A program made the translations under genes and the position numbers. This document shows positions 899 through 53,904 of a stretch of DNA of 64,000 nucleotides, piece by piece; position 1 is the first letter of the stretch, and every line of letters begins with the position of its first letter. The DNA lies in the NCBI GenBank assembly GCA_017620205.1, contig JAFZQX010000010.1, positions 5,534-69,533 of the forward strand, written 5' to 3'. Below the pieces are notes generated by a model that saw only the letters and a program-made list of their open reading frames with translations, ran no database searches and had not been told where the DNA came from. This DNA is from Clostridia bacterium. GTDB lineage: Bacteria > Bacillota > Clostridia > UMGS1883 > UMGS1540.

Positions 899-914
899 GG
901 GAGGCAGTTAAAAA

Positions 915-1700: not shown

Positions 1701-1744
1701 CATTTCGCAGCCCTGACTGTAGTTTAATAAAACCAATCAACAAA

Positions 1745-1782
1745 CAATACAAAAACCACTCTGATTTTCAGAGTGGTTTTTT
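1745..1782. terminator. Bidirectional rho-independent terminator between convergent genes
   Basis: Hairpin aaaaccactctga-ttt-tcagagtggtttttt, flanked by an A-run and a T-run. Confidence 0.6.
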
Positions 1783-1797
1783 GCGTAAATTAATATA

Positions 1798-2712
1798 CTA
1801 ATTGTTTTTTGGGGGCAATACAAATTCTTTGCCCAAAATAAAATCAAACTCATCGGGGTCAAATTCTATATAGCCGCTGCCGTTAAAAAACGTAAGCTCG
1901 CCGAAAGTGATTTGATCGTTTTCGCAGAAAAGGTCAACTCTTACATGCGGAAAACGCGCCGAAAGCTTTTCGGCAATTTCAAGCATTTTATCAAATTTTT
2001 GGGGTTTTTCAATAAGATGCACAGGCTTGCCCTCGCCTACACGGTAGTAGGGAAGAAGGTTATAATCCCTGTCGTAAATGCCTATCTCGGCGTCCTGACC
2101 CAACCGTCTGTTTGTTATAACATAAACATATTTGCATTTGCCGCCGAAACAGAAAAATTTAAAATCGGTAAGTCCCATATCGCTTGCGGCTTCGATATAT
2201 TTTTCGCAGATTATTCTGTGCCTCGGCTTGCCCGAATAGTAAACCCATTCTCTGCCGCCGCTTTTTACGGGCTTTGTGTTTACCCAATACTGCATTTGTT
2301 TTTTGAAAGATTCGATATCGGCTTTTTCTTTGTCCGTGCAAATTATAACGGAGCTGCCGCCGCCGCCCAGAGTGTCCTTTAAAACAAACTTTTCAGGCAG
2401 GACTGAAAAATCAATCTCACCGGGATCCGCGTAAACGCCGTAACATTCGTTTAAGATTTCAGGGAATCCCTGCTCTTTAACATATTCTCTTACATCAAAT
2501 TTATCGGCGCACTGCGCCATAACGCTGTCGCGGTAATAAAGCTTATACCATTGAAGCTTTTCTGTATATCTTTCGGGATCTTTAAGGTTTAGTTTCCGTC
2601 CCGTCTTAATTTTGTATTGAAGCTTTATCATGGCTTTATCGGGAATGAAAGACAAAATATCAAGTATAGCCATGCGAAGCTTGCGGCTTTTCAATACCTT
2701 TTTGTAATCCAT
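1798..2712 (-). CDS. ATP-grasp fold (TupA-like) amidoligase family protein
   Basis: 304 aa. The KLQWYKLYYRD motif and overall pattern are typical of TupA-like ATP-grasp proteins. It is the last gene of the minus-strand operon with ispE. Confidence 0.45.
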   Translation of the reverse strand: MDYKKVLKSRKLRMAILDILSFIPDKAMIKLQYKIKTGRKLNLKDPERYTEKLQWYKLYYRDSVMAQCADKFDVREYVKEQGFPEILNECYGVYADPGEIDFSVLPEKFVLKDTLGGGGSSVIICTDKEKADIESFKKQMQYWVNTKPVKSGGREWVYYSGKPRHRIICEKYIEAASDMGLTDFKFFCFGGKCKYVYVITNRRLGQDAEIGIYDRDYNLLPYYRVGEGKPVHLIEKPQKFDKMLEIAEKLSARFPHVRVDLFCENDQITFGELTFFNGSGYIEFDPDEFDFILGKEFVLPPKNN

Positions 2713-2715
2713 GGT

Positions 2716-3597
2716 TTACTCACCTGCAATAATATCGTTTACGGGCACTGTCAAAAACGAAGCTATTTTCATGCGGCTGAATTTCTTTTTTGCTTTTTCG
2801 GCTTTTTCACTGTCCGTAAAAATGCCGAAAACAGCGCTTCCGCTGCCGGTCATAACGCTGCCCAAAGCGCCGCATTCAAGCATTATGCCCTTATACTTAT
2901 TAAGTTCTTTATAGTAAGGAGCAACAGCATTTTCCAAAACGTTATAAAGCCTTACGGAAATTTCATGCAGGTTGCCGCTGTCAAGACATTTTATTATCTC
3001 GTCCGTTTTCGGATGCATTGTGCTTACCGTTTTGTCGTAATCCGCAAAAGCGGATTTTGTGTTTATTGACATTTTCGGTTTTACAATTAAAATATGGCAG
3101 TCGGGGAGAGGGGACAAAGGCGTAAGTATTTCGCCGAGACCTTCCGCAAGACACGTGCCGCCCGTCATGCAGAAAGGCACGTCCGCGCCGCAGCGAAGTC
3201 CTATTTCGAGCAGCTTTTCTTTTCCTAAAGGACTGCCGTAAATACCGTTTAACGCAAACAGCGTTGCTGCCGCGTCCGCGCTGCCGCCTGCAAGGCCCGC
3301 GCCCATGGGAATATTCTTTTCAATATCTATTTTAATTCCGTCTTTTTTATTCAGTTCGGACAGAAAGTATTCAGCCGCGAGATATGCTATATTGCGCCTG
3401 TCTGTCGCGAGGTATGAAAGATTTGTTGAAACTTCTATACTGTCGCCGTCTGTTTTTTCTACGGTGACCTTGTCATAAAGACTGACGGACTGCATTATTG
3501 ATTTTAAAAGATGGTAACCGTCATCACGTCTGCCGGCAATATCGAGCGACAGATTTATTTTAGCATACGCCCTGATACTTTTTTTCGGATAATTCAT
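2716..3597 (-). CDS. ispE: 4-diphosphocytidyl-2-C-methyl-D-erythritol kinase
   Basis: GHMP kinase motifs (AKINLSLDI, PMGAGLAGGSADAAA). 293 aa. Confidence 0.85.
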   Translation of the reverse strand: MNYPKKSIRAYAKINLSLDIAGRRDDGYHLLKSIMQSVSLYDKVTVEKTDGDSIEVSTNLSYLATDRRNIAYLAAEYFLSELNKKDGIKIDIEKNIPMGAGLAGGSADAAATLFALNGIYGSPLGKEKLLEIGLRCGADVPFCMTGGTCLAEGLGEILTPLSPLPDCHILIVKPKMSINTKSAFADYDKTVSTMHPKTDEIIKCLDSGNLHEISVRLYNVLENAVAPYYKELNKYKGIMLECGALGSVMTGSGSAVFGIFTDSEKAEKAKKKFSRMKIASFLTVPVNDIIAGE

Positions 3598-3598
3598 A

Positions 3599-4597
3599 TC
3601 AGCTTAAATTTTCCTTTTCACTTTTTTTGTCGCGGAGCATAAGCTTTAAAACCGCGTCGCGCGGCGGCATTTCTTCAAATAAGATCTCGTACGCCGCGTG
3701 CGTAATCGGCATTGAAACGCCGTATTTTTCCGAAAGCGCATAGGCTATTTCGGTAGCGTAAACGCCTTCGACAACCATCTGAACTTTTTCCTGCGCCTCT
3801 TTGGGCGATATGCCCTGACCGATGAGCAGCCCCGCGCGCCTGTTTCTCGAATGCATACTCGTGCAGGTAACGATAAGGTCGCCAACACCGGAAAGACCGG
3901 AAAACGTGTGCGGATCAGCGCCCATTGATGCGCCGAGACGTGAAATTTCGGCAAGACCGCGCGTCATCAAAGCTGCTTTTGTGTTGTCTCCGAGCCCAAG
4001 CCCGTCCGATATACCCGCGCAGAGCGCTATAACGTTTTTAAGCGCCGCGCCCACTTCAACGCCTATCACATCGTCATTTGTATAAACGCGGAAATAGTCG
4101 TTCATAAACGTGTCCTGAACAAGCTCCGCCGCTTTTTTGTCTTTTGAAGCCGCGACAATAGTTGTAGGGATTTGCCGCGCAACCTCTTCCGCGTGCGAAG
4201 GACCGCTTAAAACAACAACGGGGTTATTAAGGTGCACCGCAATGGCTTCCGAGAGGCGCATAAGACCTGTTTTTTCAAAGCCTTTCGCAACGTTTACGAT
4301 GGGGACGGCAGGGTTTGCAAATCTCTTAAACTGCTCCGCCGTTTTAAAAACCGCGTGCGACGGCACGGCGAATATGTATAAATCCGCGTCTGCAGCGGTT
4401 TGTAAATCGTATGTATAGCTGATATTCTCTGGTAGCTCTATACCGGGGAGACACGCCTTGTTTTCGCGCGCCGCGGCTAAAGAGTCGCTCTCTTCTTTTT
4501 TCCACGACCAAAGCGTTACGGAAAAGCCTTTTTCCGCAAGCAGTTTTGCGATGGCGCAGCCCCAGCTGCCCGAGCCTATAACTGAAATCTTTTTCAT
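3599..4597 (-). CDS. gpsA: NAD(P)H-dependent glycerol-3-phosphate dehydrogenase
   Basis: N-terminal Rossmann motif (ISVIGSGSWGCAIAKLL). 332 aa, with typical GpsA conservation. Confidence 0.85.
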   Translation of the reverse strand: MKKISVIGSGSWGCAIAKLLAEKGFSVTLWSWKKEESDSLAAARENKACLPGIELPENISYTYDLQTAADADLYIFAVPSHAVFKTAEQFKRFANPAVPIVNVAKGFEKTGLMRLSEAIAVHLNNPVVVLSGPSHAEEVARQIPTTIVAASKDKKAAELVQDTFMNDYFRVYTNDDVIGVEVGAALKNVIALCAGISDGLGLGDNTKAALMTRGLAEISRLGASMGADPHTFSGLSGVGDLIVTCTSMHSRNRRAGLLIGQGISPKEAQEKVQMVVEGVYATEIAYALSEKYGVSMPITHAAYEILFEEMPPRDAVLKLMLRDKKSEKENLS

Positions 4598-12247: not shown

Positions 12248-14068
12248 CTATTCAACTGTTACGGATTTTGCCAAATTACGGGGCTTGTCAACATCACAGC
12301 CCTTAAGACACGATACGTGATAAGCTAGAAGCTGCAACGGAACAATTGCCGCAACGGGAGCCAGCAGCGGTGAAGATTTCGGCAGTTTAAAGTAAACGTC
12401 AAAAGTCTTTTCGCAGTCTTCACAGTCAGGCGATGCAAAGCCAACCGTAAACGCGCCGCGCGCTATAACCTCTTTCATGTTGCTCAGTGTTTTGCCGCTT
12501 ATCTGTTTGTCTGTTATTATAGCGATTGTAACGGTGCCGTCGTCAATTAACGCGATAGGACCGTGTTTTATTTCGCCGCTTGCGTATGTATCGGAATGTA
12601 TGTAAGAAATTTCTTTCATTTTGAGCGACGCTTCAAGAGCCACGCTGTAATCAAGACCGCGGCCGAGGAAGTAAACGTCAAGCTCTTTGTAGATCCTCTC
12701 CGCGAGCTTTTTAACATCATCGTTTAAGTTTAATACCTCAGTAACCTTTTCGGGGAGAGATAAAATCTCTTTCTTGAAGAAATCAAGCAAGTTTTGCGGT
12801 GTTTTCTTTGTAATTTCAGCCGCCGCTACCGCGGTGAGGTATAAAGCGACAAGCTGTGTCGTATATGCTTTTGTTGACGCAACCGCGATTTCGGGGCCTG
12901 CATATGTATAGAAAACATAGTCGCTCTCTCTCGCTACGGAGCTGCCCACAACGTTTGTAATTGACAAAACGGGCGAGCCGTATGTATGAGCGAGGCGGAG
13001 CGCCGCCAAAGTATCTGCCGTTTCACCGGACTGGCTTATAAGTATAACGCCTGTCTTTTCTGAAATTAACGGGCCGCGGTAACGGAACTCGGAAGCCAAA
13101 TCAACCTCAACGGGAATTCCCGCGAGCGTTTCTATGGCGCGCTTGCCGACTAAACCTGCGTGGTAAGCCGTGCCGCAGGCAACTATGTAGAGCCTGTCAA
13201 CCTTTTCGAAAAACTCTTTATTCATTTCAACAGGGTCGATCTGTAAGTTTTCGTCAATTCTGCCGATAAGCGTTCTCTTTATTGCGGCGGGCTGCTCGAA
13301 AATTTCTTTGAGCATGAAGTGCTCATAGTCGCCTTTTGTTGCGTCCTCCGCGCTGTAATCAACGTGGTAGATATCTTTCGGGGAAGGAGCACCGTTTTTG
13401 TCCGTAATATCAACGCTGTTTTCTGTAATTACTGCAACATCGCCGTCGTTTAAAAGATAAAAATCTTTCGTGTATGATAAAACGGCGGGGATATCGGAAG
13501 CTATAAAGTTTTCGCCCTTACCAAGACCGATAATTAAGGGACTGCCTTCACGCGCCACCACAATTTTGCCGTCCTCGCGGGAGGAGATAACGCAGAGCGC
13601 GTAGCTGCCTATAAGCCTTGATATTGTTTTTGTAACGGCTTCTCTTAAATCGCCGTTATAGTAATAGTCAATAAGATGAGGCACAACCTCTGTATCCGTT
13701 TCGGATATAAACTCATATCCTTCGTTTTTGAGCTCTTCTCTTAAAACCTCATAGTTTTCAATGATACCGTTATGTACAACAACAATATCGCCCGCTTTGT
13801 TTGCGTGCGGATGCGCGTTTATCTGCGTCGGCGCGCCGTGCGTTGCCCAGCGCGTATGACCTATGCCTATGTTGCCCGATATATCCGTTGCGGCAACTTT
13901 TTCTCTTAAATTTGAAAGCCTGCCGCGCTCCTTGCACAAAAGAATATGACCGCCGCTTAAAACGGAAATGCCTGCGGAGTCATAGCCGCGGTATTCAAGA
14001 CTTTCAAGACCGTTTAATAATATATCTGTCGCGTTTTTATCGCCGATGTAGCCAACTATTCCACACAT
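12248..14068 (-). CDS. glmS: Glutamine--fructose-6-phosphate aminotransferase (isomerising)
   Basis: True start is MCGIVGYIG with the catalytic Cys2. Two SIS domains, and the protein ends ...KSVTVE. The longer ORF-track start at 14182 runs into the ribozyme leader and is rejected. Confidence 0.9.
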   Translation of the reverse strand: MCGIVGYIGDKNATDILLNGLESLEYRGYDSAGISVLSGGHILLCKERGRLSNLREKVAATDISGNIGIGHTRWATHGAPTQINAHPHANKAGDIVVVHNGIIENYEVLREELKNEGYEFISETDTEVVPHLIDYYYNGDLREAVTKTISRLIGSYALCVISSREDGKIVVAREGSPLIIGLGKGENFIASDIPAVLSYTKDFYLLNDGDVAVITENSVDITDKNGAPSPKDIYHVDYSAEDATKGDYEHFMLKEIFEQPAAIKRTLIGRIDENLQIDPVEMNKEFFEKVDRLYIVACGTAYHAGLVGKRAIETLAGIPVEVDLASEFRYRGPLISEKTGVILISQSGETADTLAALRLAHTYGSPVLSITNVVGSSVARESDYVFYTYAGPEIAVASTKAYTTQLVALYLTAVAAAEITKKTPQNLLDFFKKEILSLPEKVTEVLNLNDDVKKLAERIYKELDVYFLGRGLDYSVALEASLKMKEISYIHSDTYASGEIKHGPIALIDDGTVTIAIITDKQISGKTLSNMKEVIARGAFTVGFASPDCEDCEKTFDVYFKLPKSSPLLAPVAAIVPLQLLAYHVSCLKGCDVDKPRNLAKSVTVE

Positions 14069-14094
14069 AATTATATAAATCCTTTCGATGTAAT

Positions 14095-14250
14095 TTTCTT
14101 TTATACATTGCAAAGCCCCCTTTGTTCGCGGATTGCTCCGTGTTTTTAAAGACTTGCTTACGACATGCCTGCCGTGGGACATCCGCCGAAAAATTCGATA
14201 CTCCCCAACCTCGTCTGCCTGCCGTCTGCCCAGCAGGTACCGGCGCTTTT
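14095..14250 (-). ncRNA. glmS ribozyme: glmS ribozyme (GlcN6P-responsive self-cleaving riboswitch) in the glmS 5' leader
   Basis: The minus strand reads AGCGCCGGUACCUGCUGGGCAGACGGCAGGCAGACGAGGUUGGGGAGUAUCGAAUUUUUCGGCGGAUGUCCCACGGCAGGCAUGUCGUAAGCAAG... It contains the invariant core CGAAUUUUCGGCGGAUG and the 5' AGCGCC cleavage-site context of the glmS ribozyme. Confidence 0.85.
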
Positions 14251-14314
14251 TTGCTTTTACTCAGACCTTTCTTAAGATTTGGCAAACTTTATTAATATAT
14301 AAATATACATAATA

Positions 14315-22680: not shown

Positions 22681-22791
22681 CAAATTCTGATTTGTGAGAT
22701 AAGGGGACGGAGCTGTTGTTTTGGGATTAAGACAACTGAGCCGCCCTCTTGCTTTTTGCAAAGAAAAACGGAGCAAAGCCCATTCCGACGA

Positions 22792-23355
22792 GGCGCGCTG
22801 TAAGGGATAAAGCCGCCTGCGGCGTCTTTCCTGCTCGGCGACCTTAAAAATAGTTAATCGCGAAAAAGTGGTAGCGAGCCAAAGGCGTTATGAGGGCGCT
22901 TGCAACCGAATAGCCGACGTGAGCGTGCTTTTTTGCGAAAGAGGAGGAGCAAGGGATCGGGCGGATGTTTTTATGTAAAGAAAAACGAAGCAAAGCGGAC
23001 TTCGCTCCGACGAGCCTTCGCACCACGCGCCTACAAAACATGCCACAGGCATATTTTGCCGGGCGGCGCGTGCCCCCTCGGTGTTCGAATCCCTTCCACC
23101 GCAAAAAAAAATATACCGCGCATACCGGGTGATATACTCGGGATATTGGCGCGCTGTAAGGGATAAAGTTTTGCTTCGCAAACCTTTCCTGCTCGGCGAC
23201 CGAAAGCCTCGCTTTCAGTACCCGCCTTCGCACCACGCGCCTACAAAACATGCCACAGGCATATTTTGCCGGGCGGCGCGTGCCCTCTCAGGGTTCGAAT
23301 CCCTTCCACCGAAAAAAAATATACCGAGCATATCGGGTGATATACTCGGTATATT
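22792..23355. repeat. Tandem degenerate repeats (one 356-bp unit, then one 208-bp unit), each beginning with the tRNA-Arg 3'-end sequence GGCGCGCTGTAAGGGA and ending with the tRNA-Arg terminator hairpin
   Basis: GGCGCGCTGTAAGGGA occurs at 22792, 23148 and 23356. A roughly 150-bp segment (cttcgcaccacgcgcctacaaaacatgcc...gggtgatatactcgg) is duplicated with a few mismatches. Inside each unit there is a tRNA T-arm-like GGGTTCGAATCCCTTCCACC. Confidence 0.7.
23312..23353 (-). terminator. Rho-independent terminator immediately 3' of tRNA-Arg
   Basis: Minus strand shows hairpin aatataccgag...ctcggtatatt followed by an 8-T run. A second copy lies at about 23104-23147. Confidence 0.6.
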
Positions 23356-23431
23356 GGCGCGCTGTAAGGGATTCGAACCCCTGACCTACTGGTCCGTAGC
23401 CAGTCACTCTATCCAGCTGAGCTAACAGCGC
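23355..23431 (-). tRNA. tRNA-Arg: tRNA-Arg (anticodon ACG), CCA encoded
   Basis: Minus strand reads GCGCTGTTAGCTCAGCTGGATAGAGTGACTGGCTACGGACCAGTAGGTCAGGGGTTCGAATCCCTTACAGCGCGCCA. Anticodon loop CUACGGA. Confidence 0.85.
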
Positions 23432-33481: not shown

Positions 33482-34201
33482 TTAAACTTCCATTCTCTTT
33501 TGCATAACGCGCCTTGCGCTGCTTTCAAACTCGTCGTCAAGCGGTGTTAAAGAAGAAATATCGCCGTATTTGCGCTTTAGCGCCGCCGAAATCATTTCAT
33601 CGGCTATCTTAGGATTCTTTGAGAGAAAAGGCCCGTGCAGATATGTGCAGTAAGTGTTTTTGTAGCGGAGGCCTTCTCCGCCGTCCTCGCCGTTGTTGCC
33701 GAACCCCTTTATAACCTTGCCAAGCGGCTGCATATCGCCTATATACGTTCTGCCGGCGTGGTTTTCAAAGCCTATCGCCGTATAGCCGTCTATATCCGTT
33801 GCTATATTACCTATAAGGCGCGTATCGCCGCCTTCGGTATAGTGATTTAGAATACCGAGACCTTCGAGCTTTTCACCTTCCGGAGTTACATAGTATTTGC
33901 CGAGCATCTGATATCCGCCGCAGATAGCGAGCAAAACGCCGCCCGTTTCGATATACATACGCATATCGCCTATAATTCTGTCTTTAATATCCTGCTCAAC
34001 AACGCTCATCTCAAAGTCCTGACCGCCGCCGAACATAACTATATCCGTATTCTCGCTGTCAAAAGTATCGCCTACGGAGTAGTTTATCACTTTTACGTCA
34101 ATTCCCCTTGCCGCGGCTCGGCTTTTAAGAATAAGTATGTTTCCTATATCTCCGTACATATTTAAAAGTTCGGGATAAAGATGACAAATATTTAGTTCCA
34201 T
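33482..34201 (-). CDS. gatD: Lipid II isoglutaminyl synthase glutaminase subunit (CobB/CobQ-like GATase)
   Basis: Type 1 glutamine amidotransferase with the Cys in LLAICGGYQMLG. Immediately downstream of the Mur-ligase-family gene, the canonical murT-gatD pair. Confidence 0.75.
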   Translation of the reverse strand: MELNICHLYPELLNMYGDIGNILILKSRAAARGIDVKVINYSVGDTFDSENTDIVMFGGGQDFEMSVVEQDIKDRIIGDMRMYIETGGVLLAICGGYQMLGKYYVTPEGEKLEGLGILNHYTEGGDTRLIGNIATDIDGYTAIGFENHAGRTYIGDMQPLGKVIKGFGNNGEDGGEGLRYKNTYCTYLHGPFLSKNPKIADEMISAALKRKYGDISSLTPLDDEFESSARRVMQKRMEV

Positions 34202-34214
34202 TGTTTTCCCTCCC

Positions 34215-35555
34215 TTATTTCCAAAGTTTCTTAATATACTTCTTTTTATGAAGGTATTTCCTGAAAGATGTCATCGCCGTATATGTTGTAAACAGATAAA
34301 CTCTGCCTGTTATATTCGTTCTTATTGAATACAAAATTCCGTCATAGTCTTCCGAAACGTGGAACCTGTTTGTATCAAGCCCCGCGTATTTAAGGCGTAT
34401 CGCCATATCGTAGCAGCGCGTGCCGCCTACCAAAACGTTTTGGTAGTTCATTTTTGTAAATCTTTCAAAGTGCGCGTCGTAGATCCAGGAAACATCCGTG
34501 CCGTCCGCATAGTTGTCATTTAAAAGAAAAGCTAAATTTACGGCGTCCTCATCGGGCAAAACGGAGTTTATGGCTTCGTTGCAGCCTGCGGGGTTTTTAA
34601 CGAGTATTATTCTTACTTCGCGCCCGTCTATATTTACTGTTTCCTGTCTGCCGAATTTACTGCCGCAGCTTTCTATTCCCGCTTTTATATCGTCCTGACA
34701 AACACCTAGTGCGCCCGCAGTAGTAGCGGCGCAAAGCGCGTTATAGATGTTGTAAGTTCCGGGAAGCGGTATTTCGATTTCGAGCCCGTCAAAGGAAACC
34801 TTTGAAGAATCCGCCGTTAAAACAGGCGTTTTGTTAACGCCGAGCGCAAGCTGAGGTCTTTTTTTGCCGCATCGCGGGCAAGAATAGTCGCCGAGGTGGT
34901 TAAACGTTACAAAATTATATTCATACGGCTTTTTGCAGTCGCGGCAGAACTTGCCTTCTGCGTTCATTTCGCTTTCCGTATTTATATCGGGCGTAACCCT
35001 GAAGCCGTAATAGTAGCGTTTAGAGCCTTCCATAAATCCGAAGAGAAGCGATTCGTCGCCGTTTAAAACGAAAGTGCTTTCGGGCGTTTTGGCGCATCCG
35101 TCGGCTATCAGCTTTAACGTTTTGTCAACCTCGCCGTATCTGTCAAGCTGGTCGCGGAAAATATTTGTAACCGCTATTATTTCGGGTTTTATATCTTCTG
35201 TTACATGTTTTAAATAAGCTTCGTCAACCTCAAGTACCGCAAATTTCATTTCATCGCTTTTTTTGAAACGGTAGTTTTTTATAAGGCATGAAACAATGCC
35301 TGGCTTCATATTAGCGCCGCTTGAGTTATTGATAACCGGGCTGCCCGTAGCTTTAATAGCCGCAACTATCTGCGAGCATGTAGTGGTTTTGCCGTTTGTG
35401 CCGGTAACTAATACTATTCTGTATCCGTCCGCAACCTTCGGCAGAATGTTAGGTCTGAGTTTTAATGCTATTTCGCCGGGCAAACTTGTCCCGCCGCCGA
35501 GCAGTCCTGTTAAAAAGGATAATATTTTCATAAGAAAAATAATTATATTGTCCAT
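34215..35555 (-). CDS. murT: Lipid II isoglutaminyl synthase, Mur ligase-family subunit MurT
   Basis: ATP-binding VLVTGTNGKTTT, a Cys4 ribbon (CRDCKK...CPRCGKK), and a C-terminal DUF1727-like region. Start chosen at the ATG 7 nt after GGAAGGTG. Confidence 0.75.
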   Translation of the reverse strand: MDNIIIFLMKILSFLTGLLGGGTSLPGEIALKLRPNILPKVADGYRIVLVTGTNGKTTTCSQIVAAIKATGSPVINNSSGANMKPGIVSCLIKNYRFKKSDEMKFAVLEVDEAYLKHVTEDIKPEIIAVTNIFRDQLDRYGEVDKTLKLIADGCAKTPESTFVLNGDESLLFGFMEGSKRYYYGFRVTPDINTESEMNAEGKFCRDCKKPYEYNFVTFNHLGDYSCPRCGKKRPQLALGVNKTPVLTADSSKVSFDGLEIEIPLPGTYNIYNALCAATTAGALGVCQDDIKAGIESCGSKFGRQETVNIDGREVRIILVKNPAGCNEAINSVLPDEDAVNLAFLLNDNYADGTDVSWIYDAHFERFTKMNYQNVLVGGTRCYDMAIRLKYAGLDTNRFHVSEDYDGILYSIRTNITGRVYLFTTYTAMTSFRKYLHKKKYIKKLWK

Positions 35556-35560
35556 AAATA

Positions 35561-36214
35561 TCACCTTCCTATAACGAATAAGTAAATTGAAAAGAAATGT
35601 AAAATACTGCCGCCCAGCACAAAGAAGTGCCAGATGGAGTGCATATATTTAAGCTTCGGAAATGCGTAAAAAATAATTCCGAGCGTATAAACGATGCCGC
35701 CCGCAACAAGGAAAATAAGGCCGCCGAGCTGCATGTTTGAAACAAGCGTTTTGAAATAGAAAATAACAGCCCAGCCCATTATAACATAACAAATGTAGCT
35801 GAATATTTTGTATTTTTCCATGTTAACCGCGTTTAAAACGATGCCGAGTATCGCAAATGCCCATATAACCGCGCAAAGCGTAATACCCTTCGCGCCGCCT
35901 ATAACCAAAAGGGCATAGGGCATATAAGTTCCCGCGATAAGCAGGAAAATCGAAGAATGGTCAAACACCCTGAAGACTGCTTTCGCCTTGGGGTTTGTGA
36001 TCGAATGATATAATGTGGAAAAAAGATACATCAAAATAAGCGTTGAGCCGTATATAGCGGCACAGACAACATATAAAGGGTTATGCGTAAAAGCCGCGGA
36101 CACAACGAGAAGCACAAGTGCGGCAATCGCAAGACCTGCGCCTATACCGTGCGATATTGCGTTTACAAGCTCTTCTCCGAGCGTATAACTTGGTGGTTTA
36201 TTATTTTTTTTCAT
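35561..36214 (-). CDS. Hemolysin III family (PAQR) membrane protein
   Basis: 7-TM, 217 aa, with motifs NAISHGIGAGLAI and HSIWHFFVLGG. Confidence 0.7.
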   Translation of the reverse strand: MKKNNKPPSYTLGEELVNAISHGIGAGLAIAALVLLVVSAAFTHNPLYVVCAAIYGSTLILMYLFSTLYHSITNPKAKAVFRVFDHSSIFLLIAGTYMPYALLVIGGAKGITLCAVIWAFAILGIVLNAVNMEKYKIFSYICYVIMGWAVIFYFKTLVSNMQLGGLIFLVAGGIVYTLGIIFYAFPKLKYMHSIWHFFVLGGSILHFFSIYLFVIGR

Positions 36215-36229
36215 TTTAGTCTCCCGTGA

Positions 36230-37018
36230 TTAATGTGCCGTTTCATGAGCCGTTTTAACAACGGCTTCAATGTCAAGCGGCATATCTTTGCCGCTTCGTC
36301 CGGCGTATAGCAGATATTCTATATTGCCCTTGGGGCCTTTTATGGGCGAGAAGTCAAGCCCGTATATTTTAAATTCATTGTCTTTAGCGTAACCGAGCAC
36401 TTTTTCTATAACTTCTTTATGAACTGCGGGATCGCGCACAACGCCGTTTTTGCCTACGCTTTCGCGCCCCGCTTCAAACTGCGGCTTTATAAGGCAAACC
36501 GTTTCACCCGTTTCTTTTAAAAGTTCACGCATTACGGGAAAGATAAGTTTAAGCGATATAAAAGACACGTCAACGCTCGCAAAATCAAGATCGTCATCTA
36601 TATTTTCGCGCGTTACATATCTTATGTTTGTCCGTTCCATATTAACAACTTTTTCGTTTGTGCGAAGCTCCCATGCAAGCTGCCCGTAGCCTACGTCAAC
36701 GCTGTAAACCTTCGCGGCGCCGTTTTGGAGCATGCAGTCTGTAAAACCGCCGGTTGAAGCGCCTATATCCATGCATATTTTGTTTTCGAGCGTGATGGGA
36801 AAAGACGCCATCGCTTTTTCAAGCTTTAAGCCGCCGCGGCTTACATATTTAAGGCCTTCGCGGACTTCAATGGTGTCATTCTCCGTTACAAACATACCCG
36901 CCTTGTCGGCCTTCTGTTCGTTTACATACACAACGCCACTCATAATAAGAGCCTGCGCTTTGCTTCTGCCGTCCGCAAGCCCGTTTTCGGTCATATAAAG
37001 GTCAAGTCTTTGCTTCAT
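36230..37018 (-). CDS. tlyA: TlyA-family rRNA 2'-O-methyltransferase (S4 plus FtsJ domains)
   Basis: Start at MKQRLDLYMTENGL (S4 domain). FtsJ-like methyltransferase motif (MDIGASTGGFTDCMLQNGAAKVYSVDVG). Confidence 0.8.
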   Translation of the reverse strand: MKQRLDLYMTENGLADGRSKAQALIMSGVVYVNEQKADKAGMFVTENDTIEVREGLKYVSRGGLKLEKAMASFPITLENKICMDIGASTGGFTDCMLQNGAAKVYSVDVGYGQLAWELRTNEKVVNMERTNIRYVTRENIDDDLDFASVDVSFISLKLIFPVMRELLKETGETVCLIKPQFEAGRESVGKNGVVRDPAVHKEVIEKVLGYAKDNEFKIYGLDFSPIKGPKGNIEYLLYAGRSGKDMPLDIEAVVKTAHETAH

Positions 37019-37019
37019 T

Positions 37020-38852
37020 TTACTTAAGTCCTTCTGAAATTCTTTTTGCGATTTTTTCGGGAGAGAGCCCGTAAAAATCAAAAAGCTCTTTTTGGCTTCC
37101 CGCGGGAATATACGCATCCGGGAAAGAGGCGGAATCAAAATAAGCTTCTATGCCGTTTGCCGTCATGTATGCGCCGAGCTTTTCGCCTATACCGCCGCTT
37201 TTTTCGTTGTCTTCAAGAGTTATTATTCTTTTTGTTTTATTTATACTGTTTTTGACAGTGTCAAAATCCAAAGGATGTGCGCATCTTAAATCAATTACTT
37301 CTGCGCTTATATTCTCTTTTTCCAGAATCTCCGCAGTTTCAAGCGCTTTTGATACCATAGAACCGAGCGCCGCTATTGTTATATCATTGCCTTCTCTTAA
37401 AACGCACGCCTTTAAAGGTTCAAACGGCGCGCCGCAGATGTTTTCCACGGAGCCTTTCGGGTAACGTACGGCTATGGGACCCTTATGCTCCAAAATTGCG
37501 TATCGCATCATTTGGTCAAGCGATGCAAGGTCACAAGGGGCAAGTATTGTCATATTAGGTATTGTAGAAAGATACGAAATATCATAAATTCCCTGGTGCG
37601 TTTCGCCGTCCGCGCCGACAATACCCGCGCGGTCAATTGCGAAAACAACATGGCGGCAGCCGAGTGCAACATCATGCCAAACGCTGTCATAAGCTCTCTG
37701 CAAAAACGATGAGTATATAGCTACAACGGGCGTAAGACCGCTTTCGGCAAGACCTGCCGCAAACGTTACCGCGTGCTCTTCCGCTATGCCTACGTCAAAT
37801 ATTCTGTCTTTATATTTCTTTGCGAATTCACCGAGTCCGCATGAGTCTACCATAGAAGGACAAACGCAGACAATGCTTTTGTCGTTTTCCGCAAGATCGC
37901 ATATTGTTTCGCCAAACTGCTTGGTAAACGATTTTCCGCCGCCTGATGAAGCCGAAACGCCGTGATACAAATGCGGCTCATCTTCCGCTTTTTTATAGCC
38001 TTTGCCCTTTACGGTGCATATGTGTACTATAACGGGGCCGCGCGCTTTTTTTGCTTCTTCCAAAGCCGAGCAAAGCTCTTCTATATTATGCCCGTCAACA
38101 GGCCCCAGATATTTATAACCGAGCTGCTCGAAAACAACTCCGGGAGTTATCATAAATTTAAGATATCCTTTTATTTTGCGGATAACCTTTTTAAGTCCGC
38201 CGCCGAGGAGAGGTATCTTGTCCAAAACCTGTTCGGTTTCTCTTTTGGCGTTATAATACGCCGGTTTTGTGCGGACTCTGTTTAAATATCTCGCAAAAGC
38301 GCCCATGTTTTTGCCGATGGACATTTGATTGTCGTTTAAAACAATAATCAGCTTCTTTTTAGACTGCGATATGTTGTTTATCGCTTCCATAGGCATTCCG
38401 CCTGAAAACGCCGCGTCGCCTATCACAGCTGTAACGTGATAGTTTTCGCGGTTTAGATCTCTTGCGCTTGCAAAGCCGAGTGCAACGGACAGCGAAGTGC
38501 CGCTGTGGCCCGTTTCGAATATGTCATATTCGCTTTCTGCGCGCTTCGGAAAGCCGCTTACGCCGCCGAATGTGCGCAGGGTATCGAATTTGTCGCGCCT
38601 GCCGCATATTATTTTGTGCGTATAGCACTGGTGACCTACGTCCCAAATAATCTTATCGCGCGGCGCATCAAACACCTTGTATAGAGCGCATGTAAGCTCT
38701 ATGACACCGAGGTTTGAGGCGAGATGCCCGCCGGTTTTTAAAACGTTTTCAATTAAAAACTCTCTTATTTCGCCCGAAAGCTGATTAAGAGAGGCAGTGT
38801 CAAGTTTCTTTAAATCTTCGGGGCCCGATATAGACGATAAAATACTTTTCAT
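37020..38852 (-). CDS. dxs: 1-deoxy-D-xylulose-5-phosphate synthase
   Basis: 610 aa. TPP-binding GDAAFSGGMPMEAIN and transketolase-like C-terminal domains. Confidence 0.9.
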   Translation of the reverse strand: MKSILSSISGPEDLKKLDTASLNQLSGEIREFLIENVLKTGGHLASNLGVIELTCALYKVFDAPRDKIIWDVGHQCYTHKIICGRRDKFDTLRTFGGVSGFPKRAESEYDIFETGHSGTSLSVALGFASARDLNRENYHVTAVIGDAAFSGGMPMEAINNISQSKKKLIIVLNDNQMSIGKNMGAFARYLNRVRTKPAYYNAKRETEQVLDKIPLLGGGLKKVIRKIKGYLKFMITPGVVFEQLGYKYLGPVDGHNIEELCSALEEAKKARGPVIVHICTVKGKGYKKAEDEPHLYHGVSASSGGGKSFTKQFGETICDLAENDKSIVCVCPSMVDSCGLGEFAKKYKDRIFDVGIAEEHAVTFAAGLAESGLTPVVAIYSSFLQRAYDSVWHDVALGCRHVVFAIDRAGIVGADGETHQGIYDISYLSTIPNMTILAPCDLASLDQMMRYAILEHKGPIAVRYPKGSVENICGAPFEPLKACVLREGNDITIAALGSMVSKALETAEILEKENISAEVIDLRCAHPLDFDTVKNSINKTKRIITLEDNEKSGGIGEKLGAYMTANGIEAYFDSASFPDAYIPAGSQKELFDFYGLSPEKIAKRISEGLK

Positions 38853-38862
38853 CTGTGAATAC

Positions 38863-39444
38863 CTACCTTTTTCTTCCGAACAAGTAAAAAAGTCTTCCTA
38901 CAAAAAAGACAATTGCGTTGCAGTTTGTAATTGCAAAAGTTTTGCCGACAGCCTTGCCGCCTACGGTTAAGGCGGATATAAGTGCCGCCGCCAGAACGCT
39001 TGTCAGCGCCAAATTAAAAGAATGGGATATTGCAAGGTCGCCCACTATAAGCGTTCCGATACTGCCGCTTATAACGCCGCATATATCGCCTATAACGTCA
39101 TTGCAGACGTTAGCCGTTTTTTCCGAGTGCTTTATAAGCTTTACGGCATATCTCGCGCCGCGTACCCTGTTTGACGCCATGGCGTGCAAGGGGGCGTCGT
39201 GTGCTGCGGTCACGGCAGTTCCAATAATATCAAAAATAATACCTATAAAAATAATAACAAAAAGCAGTATAAAAGCGACGGAGAGCGTAACGTCCTGCAG
39301 GCGCGAAGCGGTTAAAAAGCTTATCGCCGCCGACAGAAAGAACGTTAAAGCAACCGTTATTATAAGCCATGAGGGACTAAATTTTTTATTGCCCGTATGA
39401 GTGCTTTTTACTTTGGGCCTTTTGTATTTCTTTGATTTTTTCAT
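38863..39444 (-). CDS. Small 4-TM membrane protein, DUF21/CNNM-transmembrane-like; candidate OapA (OLE-associated protein A)
   Basis: 193 aa, basic N-terminus, 4 predicted TM helices, and a DUF21-like conserved stretch (AVTAAHDAPLHAMASNRVRGARYAVKLIKHSE). It sits immediately downstream of the long ncRNA and upstream of dxs-tlyA, on the same strand. Confidence 0.45.
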   Translation of the reverse strand: MKKSKKYKRPKVKSTHTGNKKFSPSWLIITVALTFFLSAAISFLTASRLQDVTLSVAFILLFVIIFIGIIFDIIGTAVTAAHDAPLHAMASNRVRGARYAVKLIKHSEKTANVCNDVIGDICGVISGSIGTLIVGDLAISHSFNLALTSVLAAALISALTVGGKAVGKTFAITNCNAIVFFVGRLFYLFGRKR

Positions 39445-39459
39445 TTATATTTCCTTTCG

Positions 39460-40106
39460 GCATAGCCGATTTTAAAAACAATTCTCCGGGGGCAAAGCGA
39501 GGAGTAAATTTTACGGCATAGGTCCGAGTAGGATTTCCCGCAGGCATTCCCGTGCGTCGCCGCTTCGGGAGGTTTCCCATTAAATGCCGCCCGTCAAAGA
39601 CGGAACCGGATTACCACTAAGTCCGCACTGCAATCCTCATCGCCTTTTCGGGAAGTCTCAAAAGAGATTACCCGAAACAGCCTAGGAGATTTCCTCGACA
39701 GTCACACCAATTCTTATCCTCTATTGCAAACATAATTTCAAACAGCAATAACCGCCGCATTGTTGGCCGGCAAATTGGGGTCTGATCTGTTATCCTTCAT
39801 GCCCACTCAAGGAAGGCTACTCTGCAAACAGCACAAATGCGCACCGCTAAACAGGTTTAATCCTAAGTCGTACTTTGTTTTTGTCGTAAAATTCGAGCAA
39901 CTTCGAAAGCACAATCATAGGTCTCCACGGAAAAGGGGACAAGCTCCGCATGCCATTGCGGTTTGCCCCTGAACCTTAACCCCCAGCACAAACCCCCGAC
40001 TGGGCGTCGGAAGCCTGCACCAGGAACTTCATCGATGTGCCCTTTAACGGATTTTTAGGCCCGTCCTGGGAAAAGGCTGAACTGACTAGGATACTGCGCC
40101 ACCCGT
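39460..40106 (-). ncRNA. About 650-nt GC-rich structured non-coding transcript; candidate OLE-like large ncRNA
   Basis: A 920-bp ORF-free interval noticeably GC-richer than the flanking DNA. A near-consensus sigma-A promoter (TTTACA-17-TATAAT, minus strand, -10 at 40114-40119) points into it. It contains stable GC stems and a UUCG-type loop (gccgcttcgggagg). No RNase P P4, tmRNA tRNA-like end or SRP domain IV motif was found. The gene order ncRNA-small TM protein-dxs-tlyA equals the known ole-oapA-dxs-tlyA locus. Confidence 0.45.
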
Positions 40107-40113
40107 CAAGCGT

Positions 40114-40142
40114 ATTATAGCACAAGATAAGCATATTGTAAA
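40114..40142 (-). promoter_or_regulatory. Sigma-A promoter driving the ncRNA/oapA/dxs transcript: TTTACA-17-TATAAT
   Basis: Minus-strand TTTACA at 40137-40142 and TATAAT at 40114-40119. Confidence 0.55.
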
Positions 40143-40206
40143 GTTTTTTGAGAAAAAACGGGGCAATAAGGGATACAACTGTGTAAAAAAAGACAAATTC
40201 CCATCG

Positions 40207-40235
40207 TTGACTTGATTTGTTGAATGTGATAAAAT
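40207..40235 (+). promoter_or_regulatory. Sigma-A promoter for the UbiA-family gene: TTGACT-17-TGaTAAAAT
   Basis: ttgacttgatttgttgaatgtgataaaat, giving a roughly 125-nt 5' UTR. Confidence 0.45.
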
Positions 40236-40366
40236 ATAATTTAAGATAATAGCAAAACGAGACAAAGAGACCGTCATATCATTGAGCAATGCTTAATAAC
40301 CGTCTCATCAGCTGCTTTGTGGCAGAATACTGTTTTTACATACTTAATCACGGAGGATAAGTACAA

Positions 40367-41218
40367 ATGAAGAATTATATCAAAATTGCAAGAGTGCGAC
40401 ATTGGATTAAAAATGCTTTGATTTTTATTCCTGCTTTTTTCAGTAAAGAATTGCTCTCTTTAGATTTAAACAGCATTCTGATTCTTTTGTATGGCTTTTT
40501 TGGTTTCAGTATGCTATCTTCTGCGATTTATACTTTAAATGATATACTTGATGCAGAAAAAGATAAAGTCCATCCCCAAAAGAAGTATAGACCGATCGCA
40601 AGCGGGGCAGTAAGTAAGAGAGAGGCAACAGTTCTTTTTGTTGTGTTGTTTGTGATTTCCATGGTTCTTATTTCTGCAACAAGAAATTTATATTGCATTT
40701 TGATTGCTGTTGTATATCTGTTGCTAAATATATTGTATAGTACATGGTTGAAGCACCAACCGATAATTGAAACTGTTATTATAGTGTTGGGTTTTTTACT
40801 GCGTCTTTTGTTTGGAGCGTGTCTAATGAACGTTCTTATATCAGGCTGGCTGTACCTTACGGTTATGTCGGGCGCTTTTTATATGGCGTTTGGCAAACGC
40901 AGGGGTGAGCTGCAAATGCTTGATGAAGTTGACAGACGCGCTGTTTTATCTCTTTATACATTTGGCTTTTTAGACAAAAATATGTATTGTTTTGCGACTT
41001 TAACAAATGTCTTTTATTCCCTATGGGCTATAAATGAAGGTATTAAGATGTACCCGACAATACCTATAGTATTAATCATATTCTTAAAATACAGCTATAA
41101 TACGGAAAAGAAGTCTTTTGCCGATCCTATTGATGTTTTTTTTAAAGATAAGGTTATAGTTGGTTTCGTGGTTTTATATGTAGTATATTCAATAATAGCG
41201 TTGTATTTTTGGAAGTAG
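40367..41218 (+). CDS. UbiA-family prenyltransferase, decaprenyl-phosphate phosphoribosyltransferase (DPPR synthase)-like
   Basis: RHWIKNALIFIPAFFS N-terminus. NDILDAEKDKVHPQKKYRPIASG (NDxxDxxxD) motif. 8-9 TM helices. Confidence 0.6.
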   Translation: MKNYIKIARVRHWIKNALIFIPAFFSKELLSLDLNSILILLYGFFGFSMLSSAIYTLNDILDAEKDKVHPQKKYRPIASGAVSKREATVLFVVLFVISMVLISATRNLYCILIAVVYLLLNILYSTWLKHQPIIETVIIVLGFLLRLLFGACLMNVLISGWLYLTVMSGAFYMAFGKRRGELQMLDEVDRRAVLSLYTFGFLDKNMYCFATLTNVFYSLWAINEGIKMYPTIPIVLIIFLKYSYNTEKKSFADPIDVFFKDKVIVGFVVLYVVYSIIALYFWK

Positions 41219-41231
41219 GAGGATTTAGTCT

Positions 41232-42863
41232 GTGAAAGAATTGAGCATAAACAACCTGTGCAGAAACTGGTGGTTTTTAATCTCTGCGGTTGCATTTGCT
41301 GTGTCAAGTGTCAGTCACACGTATGCGTTTTATACTTACGGTTATATTTCTATTATTGGAGTTATTCCGTTTGCTGTATTTGTAGGGGCGCGCTATGAAA
41401 ACATATTAAAAAGTGTATTGAAAACCGGAAAATGTTTTTTAATTCTATCGGCTATATCGGCAATTTCATTGAGCATTGAAAATCAACCTACGCTTTTGTT
41501 GTCCGAGCTACGGGATTTTTTAAGCATTATTCAATATAAAACCGGTATATCAACACATGCTGATTTTTTGGCTTTTGTAATTATACCAAAACTGTTATTG
41601 CCTTTAAACGCTGTATTTTACTTTACTGTGTTGACAAAGATATACACTTTTATTGAAAACGTATTAAAAAAGGTGATAAAGCTCTTTACAAAGAAAGATG
41701 TGATTGTAGCATCGTTACTTTGCGCGGCGTTAATAGTTCTTGTTGCTGTTGCATTTTGTAATGCTGATGGCCTTTCGGGGTATTATAAAAACGGAAATTA
41801 TATATATACAGCTGATATAGGCCGTTTGCTTAAAGGTAATTGCTATACTTCAATAAACCATCTGCAAAATGATATTAGGCAGCCTTTGTTTGCGGTTTTA
41901 TCTGCTCCGTTTTTCGCGCCCATTTCGTTTTTAAATCAAGTTTTTCCAATATCAAAAAGGTTGTTTGGTTTTTTGATAGCAGCAATGAATACCATACTCA
42001 TGTCTTTTTCGTTACTCCTGATCGGCGTTTGTACGGCAGAAGAAAAAACACGAAGAGGTATAATTTTCATGCTTTTTGGTATGTACGCAACGCTTTTATT
42101 TGGTATGGTCATAGAACAGTATCAAGTAGTTATGTTCTGGCTTGTGTTATATATGGTTTACTGTACCCATGTAAAGAACGAACAGATTACAAAAGAAGTC
42201 CTATTTATAGCTACAACCGGTACACTTATTACAAACGGTATCGTTTTTCCGTTAATACTTGAGGATAAAAGTATTAAAAAGATACCGGTTTTGTTATTAA
42301 AAACTGCTCTGATGGGAATTGCAGTGCTCTGCTTATTTGGCAGACTGGGCACACTTTTGAGTGGATATAGGAATGTACAAGAGTTGTTACAAGGGTTTGG
42401 CGGAGCTGAGAGCACTTTTGGCACGAGGTTTTACAAGTTTTTGACGTTTGTTTCCAACTGTTTTATAGCGCCTAATTCATATATGGCAAATGGCGGATGG
42501 CGTTTGGGAGAAGCAAAAAAAACTGCTGTAGTATTTGGTGTTACAGTTTTGGCAATATGCGTTATTAGTTTTTTGATCAACAATAAAAAGTTGTGGTCAA
42601 GAATTAGTTTTGGCTGGGTTGTTTACTCTTTTATAATAGTTTGCTTGATTGGTTGGGGCTTTGCAGATAACAGTGGCCCGATCCTTTATATTCTGTATTT
42701 TGGTTGGGCATATTGTGTAATGATTCATTTGTTCATAGACAAAATATTTGAAAAAATCAGATTGAAACGAGTGGGCTTAATCACGGAGTATGTTTTGGCA
42801 GCTGTCATGCTTTTGTTTAACATATCCCAAATCTCAGTAATGATTACTAAACTATCAATCTGA
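41232..42863 (+). CDS. Large polytopic membrane protein, putative GT-C-type glycosyltransferase partner of the DPPR synthase-like gene
   Basis: 543 aa with more than 12 TM helices and no soluble domains. GTG start 9 nt after AGGAGG. Both genes are AT-rich relative to their neighbours. Confidence 0.35.
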   Translation: MKELSINNLCRNWWFLISAVAFAVSSVSHTYAFYTYGYISIIGVIPFAVFVGARYENILKSVLKTGKCFLILSAISAISLSIENQPTLLLSELRDFLSIIQYKTGISTHADFLAFVIIPKLLLPLNAVFYFTVLTKIYTFIENVLKKVIKLFTKKDVIVASLLCAALIVLVAVAFCNADGLSGYYKNGNYIYTADIGRLLKGNCYTSINHLQNDIRQPLFAVLSAPFFAPISFLNQVFPISKRLFGFLIAAMNTILMSFSLLLIGVCTAEEKTRRGIIFMLFGMYATLLFGMVIEQYQVVMFWLVLYMVYCTHVKNEQITKEVLFIATTGTLITNGIVFPLILEDKSIKKIPVLLLKTALMGIAVLCLFGRLGTLLSGYRNVQELLQGFGGAESTFGTRFYKFLTFVSNCFIAPNSYMANGGWRLGEAKKTAVVFGVTVLAICVISFLINNKKLWSRISFGWVVYSFIIVCLIGWGFADNSGPILYILYFGWAYCVMIHLFIDKIFEKIRLKRVGLITEYVLAAVMLLFNISQISVMITKLSI

Positions 42864-53153: not shown

Positions 53154-53159
53154 ATACCA

Positions 53160-53349
53160 TAGATTTCAGGGCGGGGTGCAATTCCCCACCGGTGGTAAAG
53201 CCCACGAAGGATTTCCAAAAATCCCCGATCCGGTGTAATTCCGGAGCCGACGGTGATGGCAAAGCTTTTGTCAAAGTCCGGATGAGAGAAGTCGATATGG
53301 TGTTATATTGTCACGCCCTGAGAAGATTTATTTGAAAGGGTGTTTTTTT
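53160..53349 (+). ncRNA. FMN riboswitch (RFN element) with intrinsic terminator overlapping the ribU start
   Basis: TTCAGGGCGGGGTGCAATTCCCCACCGGTGGTAAAGCCCACGA...CCGGTGTAATTCCGGAGCCGACGGTGA...AAAGTCCGGATGAGAGAAG matches the RFN consensus. The terminator acgccct..agggtgtTTTTTTT spans 53313-53349. Confidence 0.85.
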
Positions 53350-53904
53350 ATGCAGAAAACAGATTCAACAAAAGCAATAGTAAGAATAGGCATTTTAGCG
53401 GCTATAGCCGTTGTGCTTCAGTATCTCGGCTCTTTTATGGGTATTAAAGTCGGCGGCTTTTTAGACGTTGAGCTTTCGGATTATCCCGCGATCCTCGGCG
53501 CTCTCGCAATTGGTCCTATGGCGGGCGTTTTAATAGAGCTTATCAAAAACATATTGCATCTTGCGATTTCGCATACAGGTTTTATCGGAGAGCTTGCAAA
53601 TTTCGTTATAAACGGTGTGTTTGTTCTTGTAATAGGACTTGTTTATAAGAAATATAAAACGAAAAAAGGCGCAATCGGCGCGCTTCTGGCGGGCACAATT
53701 GTTATGTGCATAGTGGGCTTTTTTGCAAACGTATATGTAATGCTTCCGTTTTACGCAAAATTTATGCCGGCGCTTGAAGAGATGTCTGTGCGTCTCAATA
53801 TGGCATCAACGCTTATAACGCCTTTTAACTTTGTAAAAGGAATTGTTTTAGGTCTTATAACTCTCTTTTCTTACAAACCGTTATCACCGATTTTGCATAA
53901 ATAA
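53350..53904 (+). CDS. ribU: Riboflavin transporter (ECF S-component RibU/FmnP-like)
   Basis: About 185-aa 5-6 TM protein directly downstream of the FMN riboswitch. Start at MQKTDST, with RBS GAAAGGG upstream. Confidence 0.7.
   Translation: MQKTDSTKAIVRIGILAAIAVVLQYLGSFMGIKVGGFLDVELSDYPAILGALAIGPMAGVLIELIKNILHLAISHTGFIGELANFVINGVFVLVIGLVYKKYKTKKGAIGALLAGTIVMCIVGFFANVYVMLPFYAKFMPALEEMSVRLNMASTLITPFNFVKGIVLGLITLFSYKPLSPILHK

Follow-up and report, generated by a model that had tools for sequence, protein, structure and literature searches.

An OLE RNA gene upstream of oapA in an uncultured Clostridia bacterium, with a reduced P13 hairpin

We have analysed a 64,000-nucleotide stretch of DNA (the window) and find that a structured element on its minus strand is almost certainly an ole gene. 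It is followed by oapA and encodes a non-coding RNA of the OLE (ornate, large, extremophilic) class, and its host would be an uncultured member of the Clostridia from gut or rumen. The class itself reportedly goes back to Puerta-Fernandez et al. in 2006. The original prediction recognised OLE from gene context alone; its observation is confirmed by the data presented here and its interpretation is supported. What has been found is an already described RNA class, a full-length OLE RNA in its usual place before oapA, and the novelty of the feature is correspondingly low, since the family is well described and can be found by standard Rfam annotation. The identity rests on homology and covariation rather than on the presence of GC stems.

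When the whole window was compared with Rfam 15 using cmscan, the OLE family (RF01071) matched positions 39473–40118 of the minus strand over the entire length of the model (positions 1–616 of 616), scoring 448 bits where the gathering score is 50 (E = 2.8e-128). A rescan of the sub-region 38800–40500 left this result unchanged, and the sole match to any other Rfam family there at E ≤ 1 was a chance match to CrcZ inside oapA (16 bits, against a threshold of 95). The prior exclusion of RNase P RNA, tmRNA, SRP RNA and cobalamin and T-box leaders is borne out, as none of these families matches the region even at this permissive cut-off, and with OLE confirmed the fallback of an unclassified large non-coding RNA is not needed. 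All 11 of the homologous loci given to Rfam contained OLE, with scores from 358 to 551 bits; reduced copies such as L007 and L079 (358–366 bits) score well below the window copy. The consensus for the class was updated by Fernando & Breaker 2024 (PMC11332333). The window copy shares with full-length members a length of about 620 nt, all of the helices from P1 to P15 and the conserved joining regions and loops, as well as a position immediately 5′ of oapA, a neighbourhood that includes dxs, tlyA and murT/gatD, a proximal promoter where P1 begins and an anaerobic Bacillota host.

Homologous loci were gathered by way of the downstream protein, giving 79 in all, and a search with nhmmer, which used the window RNA as query and sequence only, recovered OLE-like DNA at 62 of them, immediately 5′ of the homologous gene and in its orientation. 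An alignment of 35 OLE sequences, the window copy included, was made with MAFFT and scored against the Rfam structure, which was not derived from these sequences. Standard base pairs filled 82.9% of the pair cells, against 40.5–48.6% when the 3′ partners were slid by 1–3 columns, and changes on both sides were seen for 118 of the 155 consensus pairs; no shuffle out of 500 reached the observed values for pairing and covariation. The long-range helices P1, P2 and P3 lie outside the Rfam consensus structure line (their numbering here follows the text of the published papers), and were recovered independently by RNAalifold from the same alignment, each with covariation. For P2 and P3/P3.1 the covarying column pairs are 26–37/554–562, 39–41/538–540 and 49–54/524–531, columns 33 and 558, for example, forming a UA pair 20 times and a CG pair 15 times; for P1, columns 19–25 pair with 768–774. 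Three helices (10, 20 and 21) show just 54–61% pairing in the MAFFT alignment and two of these are re-registered by RNAalifold: the low values are a misalignment of variable distal stems and not evidence against the structure. The interval is thus conserved in related Clostridia and its structure covaries, as had been proposed as a check on the OLE assignment.

Projection of the Rfam structure onto the window sequence gives canonical pairs at 139 of the 155 positions, the 16 non-canonical pairs being grouped in P6, at the tip of P7 and in distal P9. Thermodynamic stability by itself lends no support: the 628-nt RNA has a minimum free energy of −218 kcal/mol, compared with −210 ± 7 kcal/mol for dinucleotide shuffles (z = −1.1), so that the description of the interval as full of GC stems corresponds to no signal beyond chance. 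The accompanying claim that it is richer in GC than its flanks holds in part. The GC fraction of the OLE element is 0.50, higher than the mean for the window (0.435), the upstream flank at 40119–40366 (0.335) and the ubiA-like gene beyond it (0.337), but there is no clear difference from the downstream genes, windows of dxs reaching 0.53.

The element is preceded on the minus strand by a sigma-A-type promoter at 40114–40142, where the original prediction had placed it, with a −35 hexamer TTTACA at 40142–40137, a 17-nt spacer and a −10 hexamer TATAAT at 40119–40114. The promoter has a consensus score of 11 out of 12 and is of the extended −10 type, because the spacer ends in TGc. In a four-sequence alignment of the window with the homologous loci L084, L001 and L004, both hexamers are conserved in L084 and L001 around a divergent spacer, TATAAT is found at the same place in L004, and the −35 hexamer marks the limit of similarity, with none upstream of it among the four. 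The BLAST similarity to L084, the closest relative, likewise stops at window position 40124 and the genes upstream in L084 are unrelated, suggesting that ole heads its own transcription unit. Considering the spacing from the −10 hexamer, the predicted start lies near G40107/A40106, some 2–5 nt 5′ of the point where conserved OLE sequence begins (GGGUGG from 40104). This agrees with H. halodurans, in which a proximal promoter at the corresponding position is active and 5′ ends have been mapped (PMC3413148). The distance from a start at about 40107 to the ATG of oapA is 663 nt, in good accord with the transcript of about 650 nt expected beforehand.

No terminator-like hairpin was found on the minus strand between the RNA and oapA, and read-through from ole into oapA-dxs-tlyA is therefore likely. 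A corollary is that oapA mRNA made from the ole promoter would begin with the entire element, a leader of 663 nt. This raises the question of whether the element works chiefly in cis, forming a long structured 5′ leader of oapA-dxs-tlyA in the manner of a riboswitch or attenuator, and not as a stable RNA. The promoter directly 5′ of the element is compatible with such a role, and the U-rich tract that follows P1 could give partial termination. We nevertheless consider this very unlikely. The OLE family is characterised as an abundant, stable, membrane-localised and protein-bound RNA with a trans-like role in stress tolerance (PMC3413148, PMC12265935), and no riboswitch or leader family matched the region at E ≤ 1. 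Furthermore, the gene after oapA is something other than dxs in 40 of 70 loci, which ties the RNA to oapA rather than to a regulated pathway.

As an OLE RNA, the element can be laid out along the minus strand in some detail. Rfam delimits the gene to 39473–40118, and the mature RNA is likely to be about 620 nt in length, with its 5′ end at about 40107 and its 3′ end at about 39485, a little beyond the P1 3′ strand. RNAalifold and the minimum-energy fold both pair the 5′ strand of P1 (CGGG-U-GGC, 40098–40105) with its 3′ strand (GCCCCCG, 39487–39493). The 5′ strands of P2 (40086–40097) and P3/P3.1 (40070–40084) follow, and their 3′ strands, at 39677–39685 for P2 and 39699–39713 for P3/P3.1, are located by the covariation that RNAalifold detects. 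Between these two 3′ strands is a small hairpin, P10/11 (GAG-GAAAU-CUC, 39686–39696), and the segment 39677–39713 that carries all three is defined by covariation counts together with RNAalifold.

Domain 1, comprising P4 to P9, occupies 39717–40065 on the evidence of the Rfam model and the alignment of 35 OLEs, in which its loop nucleotides are invariant. The A-rich loop of the P4 hairpin, CCUAAAAAUCC, lies at 40049–40059; the P5 loop, GCCCA, with the motif GACGCCCAGUC, lies within 39998–40008, and the P6 loop, AAUGGCAU, with the motif CAAUGGCAUG, within 39947–39960. P7 spans 39862–39921, with an apical part 16 nt longer than in the model, P8 spans 39822–39854 and the long arm of P9 spans 39717–39813, its apical palindrome CCGGCC being found at 39762–39771. 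The motifs that bridge the OLE dimer in cryo-EM structures (PMC12286853) are therefore all present, namely those of L4, L5 (GCC), L6 (GGC) and the tip of P9, and each is invariant or covarying among the 35 sequences. The P9 palindrome, GGCC in the window, is replaced in three relatives by GCGC, AGCU or UAUA, and so repeats the pattern from which an intermolecular kissing loop has been argued in the literature. Two conserved strands, CACAUCGAUGAAG at 40027–40039 and CCGUGGAGACC at 39920–39930, correspond to the k-turn that defines the OapC site (PMC9723947, PMC12286853), and would at the level of sequence provide a putative site for OapC (YbxF). The roles of these loops as dimer bridges and as sites for OapC and bS21 have been described (PMC12286853, PMC12265935, PMC9723947).

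The 3′ part of the RNA begins with the P12 hairpin (39646–39677), into which the Rfam alignment places a 21-nt insertion with an inner stem UCUC/GAGA, and continues as a multi-helix domain (P12.x to P15, 39494–39646) that is closed by an outer helix of 11 bp and is supported by both the Rfam model and covariation. Within it lie a reduced P13 (39591–39603), the conserved sequences UUUAAUGGGAAACC (39571–39584) and GGGAAAUCC (within 39528–39541), and the P14.1 hairpin (39554–39563), whose GCGA tetraloop is kept. Shortly 3′ of the P1 3′ strand is a U-rich tract, UUGUUUUUA (39473–39481), for which the model consensus reads AcCAcuuuuuuuu. A U-rich tract after P1 is common among OLE sequences, and it may serve as a 3′-end or partial termination signal.

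The departures of the RNA from the full-length class are all lineage-specific, and one concerns P13, which in the Rfam alignment and the predicted fold is a 5-bp stem with a UUU loop (CCGUC-UUU-GACGG), without the GNRA tetraloop and without the single-nucleotide bulge. On these two features the high-affinity binding of OapB depends (PMC7936274). With the apical part of P13 and its main docking site missing, OapB probably does not bind there in the window lineage. The weaker site, the GCGA of P14.1, is retained. In L084 the minimum-energy fold of P13 is a 6-bp stem with a CAA loop, so that loss of the OapB site is common to the window and L084, whilst in L001 a short stem still ends in a GAAA loop. 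The GNRA loop and bulge are typical of the full-length class and are not required for family membership: a GNRA loop closed by at least 2 bp was found in 32 of 42 anchored OLEs, and was lacking in the other 10. Further departures from the class are the 16 additional nucleotides in P7, the 21-nt extension of P12, which is found in the window and L084 only, and the U of P1, which is bulged or forms a U·C mismatch. At the corresponding column pair (22/771) we counted 24 UA, 7 CG and 4 UC; the minimum-energy fold of the window RNA pairs the P1 strands with the U bulged, and this is a clade-specific variant.

Loss of the OapB site has already been described for the 'variant 1' OLE RNAs (PMC11332333). 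In variant 1, however, P7, P8 and P9 are shortened, and in variant 2 both P7 and P8 are absent (Fernando & Breaker 2024), whereas in the window these helices align to the full model, with sizes of 17 bp plus the extension for P7, 13 bp for P8 and 35 bp for P9. Assignment of the window copy to either variant is ruled out by the full length of P7 to P9. It is possible, and we put it forward only tentatively, that the window, L084 and in part L001 represent a third, undescribed OLE sub-type that is full in size but has lost the OapB hairpin, extended P12 and acquired a bulge in P1, in which case the particle might assemble without OapB or might make use of the extended P12 or another protein. The truncation of P13 in an otherwise full-size OLE is in itself a minor point.

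A reduced hairpin might alternatively be read as a sign of decay, with the window copy a non-functional remnant of an OLE gene. Besides the truncation of P13 and the mismatch or bulge in P1, one could point to the 16 non-canonical pairs and to the score of 448 bits, compared with about 550 bits for copies from Clostridium. We consider decay even less probable than a role in cis. The match extends over the full length of the model and every family-invariant nucleotide is kept in the window copy, in a family for which 128 of 646 window positions (20%) are invariant and 205 (32%) at least 90% conserved across the 35 OLEs; the figure given in the literature is about 25% of nucleotides more than 97% conserved. 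Where the window departs from the 90% consensus columns, the departures are limited to a few substitutions and lineage-specific insertions. Between the window and L084 the OLE sequence is 94% identical, compared with 82% for the shared block as a whole and about 82% for the flanking genes, so that the RNA is more conserved than the neighbouring coding DNA. The basal pair of P9 is G-C in most sequences, G·A in L084 and L001 and U-A in the window alone, a double change that restores the pairing. Both the contrast in identity and this compensatory change point to purifying selection acting on the RNA. In addition, oapA is intact with its invariant motifs present, the promoter is conserved, and the same sequence has been recovered at 99.5–100% identity from several metagenome samples.

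The least credible reading sees in the interval either plain intergenic DNA or a concealed coding gene, for example the 64-aa ORF at 39386–39580, which metagenome annotators have entered in public gene calls. ORFs of 52–70 aa do exist there, but they belong to no family and conserve neither frame nor position in relatives. Moreover, the Rfam E-value is 1e-128, and the nucleotides are conserved in the manner of a paired RNA, both partners of a pair changing together. As expected from the original prediction, no ORF in 39445–40366 exceeds 70 aa, the longest being 70, 67, 64 and 52 aa; a comparison of ORFs of 40–72 aa in the window and its relatives revealed no common frame or position, and the small-ORF hypothesis was rejected.

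The gene that follows the OLE RNA, at 38863–39444 on the minus strand, was identified as an ORF and by homology. It begins 29 nt after the end of the Rfam match, has a purine-rich AAAGGAAA located 6 nt 5′ of its ATG, and encodes a 193-aa membrane protein. The protein has a lysine-rich N-terminus, a basic loop (R93–K109) and four hydrophobic segments (about 26–47, 54–80, 116–136 and 141–163), to which the helices of the AlphaFold model may be compared (24–49, 54–80, 107–141 and 145–173; pLDDT 80). It carries a DxxxD motif, D116-V-I-G-D120, that is invariant in sets of 20 and of 47 homologues. This motif is among the criteria for OapA and is absent from true CNNM domains (PMC11332333). The match to the CNNM/DUF21 domain was below threshold (24.7 bits, against 28.4), with no other Pfam domain, CBS and CorC included, found in the protein. 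A sequence search against PDB chains gave no match at E ≤ 10 and none of the NCBIfam models matched, making a fold comparison necessary; this indicated that the model has a CorB-like fold. The CNNM/CorB/CorC/MpfA Mg2+ transporters are distant relatives of OapA. Homologues are numerous (5772 at E ≤ 1e-3), most of them unnamed or labelled DUF21/CNNM, and the OapA proteins of cultured Clostridium species are about 45–50% identical to that of the window. The protein therefore has the published hallmarks of OapA, its place next to ole among them (PMC11332333, PMC12265935), and is a putative RNA-binding protein. OapA binds OLE RNA and brings it to the membrane, according to Block et al. 2011 as cited in PMC12265935. 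Pfam scans of the 64-kb window revealed neither oapB (ybzG, with a KOW domain) nor oapC (ybxF, of the L7Ae family).

Beyond oapA, the minus strand carries dxs (37020–38852; TIGR00204, 693 bits) and tlyA (36230–37018; TIGR00478, 273 bits), in the order that had been described, and then a block consisting of trhA/hlyIII (35561–36214), murT (34215–35564) and gatD (33482–34201). The short gaps and the lack of predicted terminators suggest that the genes of 33482–38852 are probably co-transcribed downstream of oapA, and the same block from dxs to gatD follows ole-oapA in L084 and L085. In the sample of 70 loci, dxs lies directly 3′ of oapA in 30 and tlyA is downstream in 34, and ole-oapA-dxs-tlyA is the commonest arrangement, in agreement with the published link of ole to genes for isoprenoid synthesis, translation and the cell wall. 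On the upstream side the window differs from the full-length class, as ole has no same-strand genes before it (no neighbours of the xseA/xseB/ispA type) and opens the transcription unit, facing a divergent UbiA-family gene that starts at 40367. Elsewhere in the window, cohesin and dockerin proteins are encoded, and the small ORFs that carry no annotation appear to be spurious.

The closest genomic relatives are metagenome-assembled genomes of uncultured Clostridia and Oscillospiraceae, followed by Clostridium species, and in the nearest species-level genome OapA is 68% identical. Contigs identical to the window sequence are present in several metagenome assemblies. Judged by this similarity, the host would be a member of the Bacillota, in the Clostridia, and the names of the samples suggest that its habitat is the ruminant gut.

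The functions inferred for OLE come from H. halodurans, C. acetobutylicum and C. botulinum, and by analogy with these species the window RNA, at about 620 nt, would be abundant and stable. It would be expected to fold into two domains, one formed by P4 to P9 and the other by P1/P2 together with P10 to P15, with P3 joining them, and might form a homodimer by means of the loops of P4 (A-rich), P5 and P6 (complementary to each other) and P9 (palindromic). A dimer of OapA may anchor the RNA at the cell membrane, and the resulting particle, with OapC, bS21 and others, may aid adaptation to alcohol, cold, excess Mg2+ and poor carbon sources.

OLE RNA is among the largest and best conserved of those bacterial non-coding RNAs that have yet to be assigned a biochemical function, and recent cryo-EM work suggests that it may span the membrane as a dimer. 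One more copy, from uncultured gut or rumen Clostridia, leaves this picture unchanged, and the practical uses of the window copy are modest; it does allow the public gene calls to be corrected, as the 64-aa ORF annotated inside the OLE RNA is spurious. A natural variant that has no OapB hairpin and retains P7 to P9 at full size could help to decide which protein contacts are essential. If there is indeed a third sub-type, it would offer a natural test, in an unreduced genome, of which components the OLE particle can do without.

Divergent from ole and upstream of it, on the plus strand at 40367–42863, lie a UbiA-family gene and its neighbour, which encodes a polytopic membrane protein of 543 aa. 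The UbiA-family product resembles decaprenyl-phosphate phosphoribosyltransferase, with a score of 173 bits that falls under the 207-bit cut-off, and the 543-aa protein has no match in Pfam or NCBIfam. Homologues of both (43% identity for the UbiA-family protein and 31% for the membrane protein) are encoded upstream of OLE in L079, a locus from a distant Bacilli metagenome-assembled genome, at approximately 785–3800. The presence of this pair near OLE in the window and in L079 may be due to chance, or may reflect a recurrent link with cell-envelope glycolipid synthesis. Within the 248-nt spacer that precedes the UbiA-family gene we observed two overlapping promoter-like sites on the plus strand (40207–40240) and, about 40 nt 5′ of the start codon, a small terminator-like hairpin followed by a T-run (40312–40325, plus strand). 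These elements could be a leader, or could have arisen by chance in AT-rich DNA.

At the other end of the RNA, a U-rich tract (39473–39481, minus strand) is found 3′ of the 3′ strand of P1, a long-range helix. The Rfam consensus has such a tract at this position, as do many OLE sequences. Acting with the closed P1 helix, it might mark the 3′ end or cause partial termination, and thereby set the ratio of OLE to oapA, the gene for its 193-aa partner. A public metagenome annotation places a 64-aa ORF within the OLE 3′ domain, overlapping the oapA start (39386–39580, minus strand; 5865–6059 in L080, a metagenome locus). This reading frame is not kept among the relatives examined, and the ORF is almost certainly spurious.

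Two further structured RNAs are present in the window, both in ordinary layouts. An FMN riboswitch (53158–53297, plus strand, 99.5 bits) stands directly 5′ of a gene for the S-component of an ECF riboflavin transporter (53308–53904), whilst a glmS ribozyme (14102–14258, minus strand, 90.8 bits) is followed on the minus strand by glmS and then glmM. The glmS ORF as mechanically listed (12248–14182) runs into the ribozyme, so the true glmS start must be internal.

The region 22750–23380 contains a direct duplication of approximately 210 nt, in which 23014–23113 matches 23224–23323, and 23104–23164 matches 23312–23372, each at 95% identity. On the plus strand, both copies carry the tRNA 3′-half-like sequence GGTTCGAATCCCTTCCACCG with an A-run after it, and a real tRNA-Arg(ACG) adjoins the duplication (23355–23431, minus strand). 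The duplication could be what is left of an integration site, or it could represent a small repeat element.

Two neighbouring genes at 251–1700 on the plus strand encode a cohesin protein and a cohesin-dockerin protein, which suggests a cellulosome-like system. These genes are consistent with a fibre-degrading member of the Clostridia from the gut or rumen.
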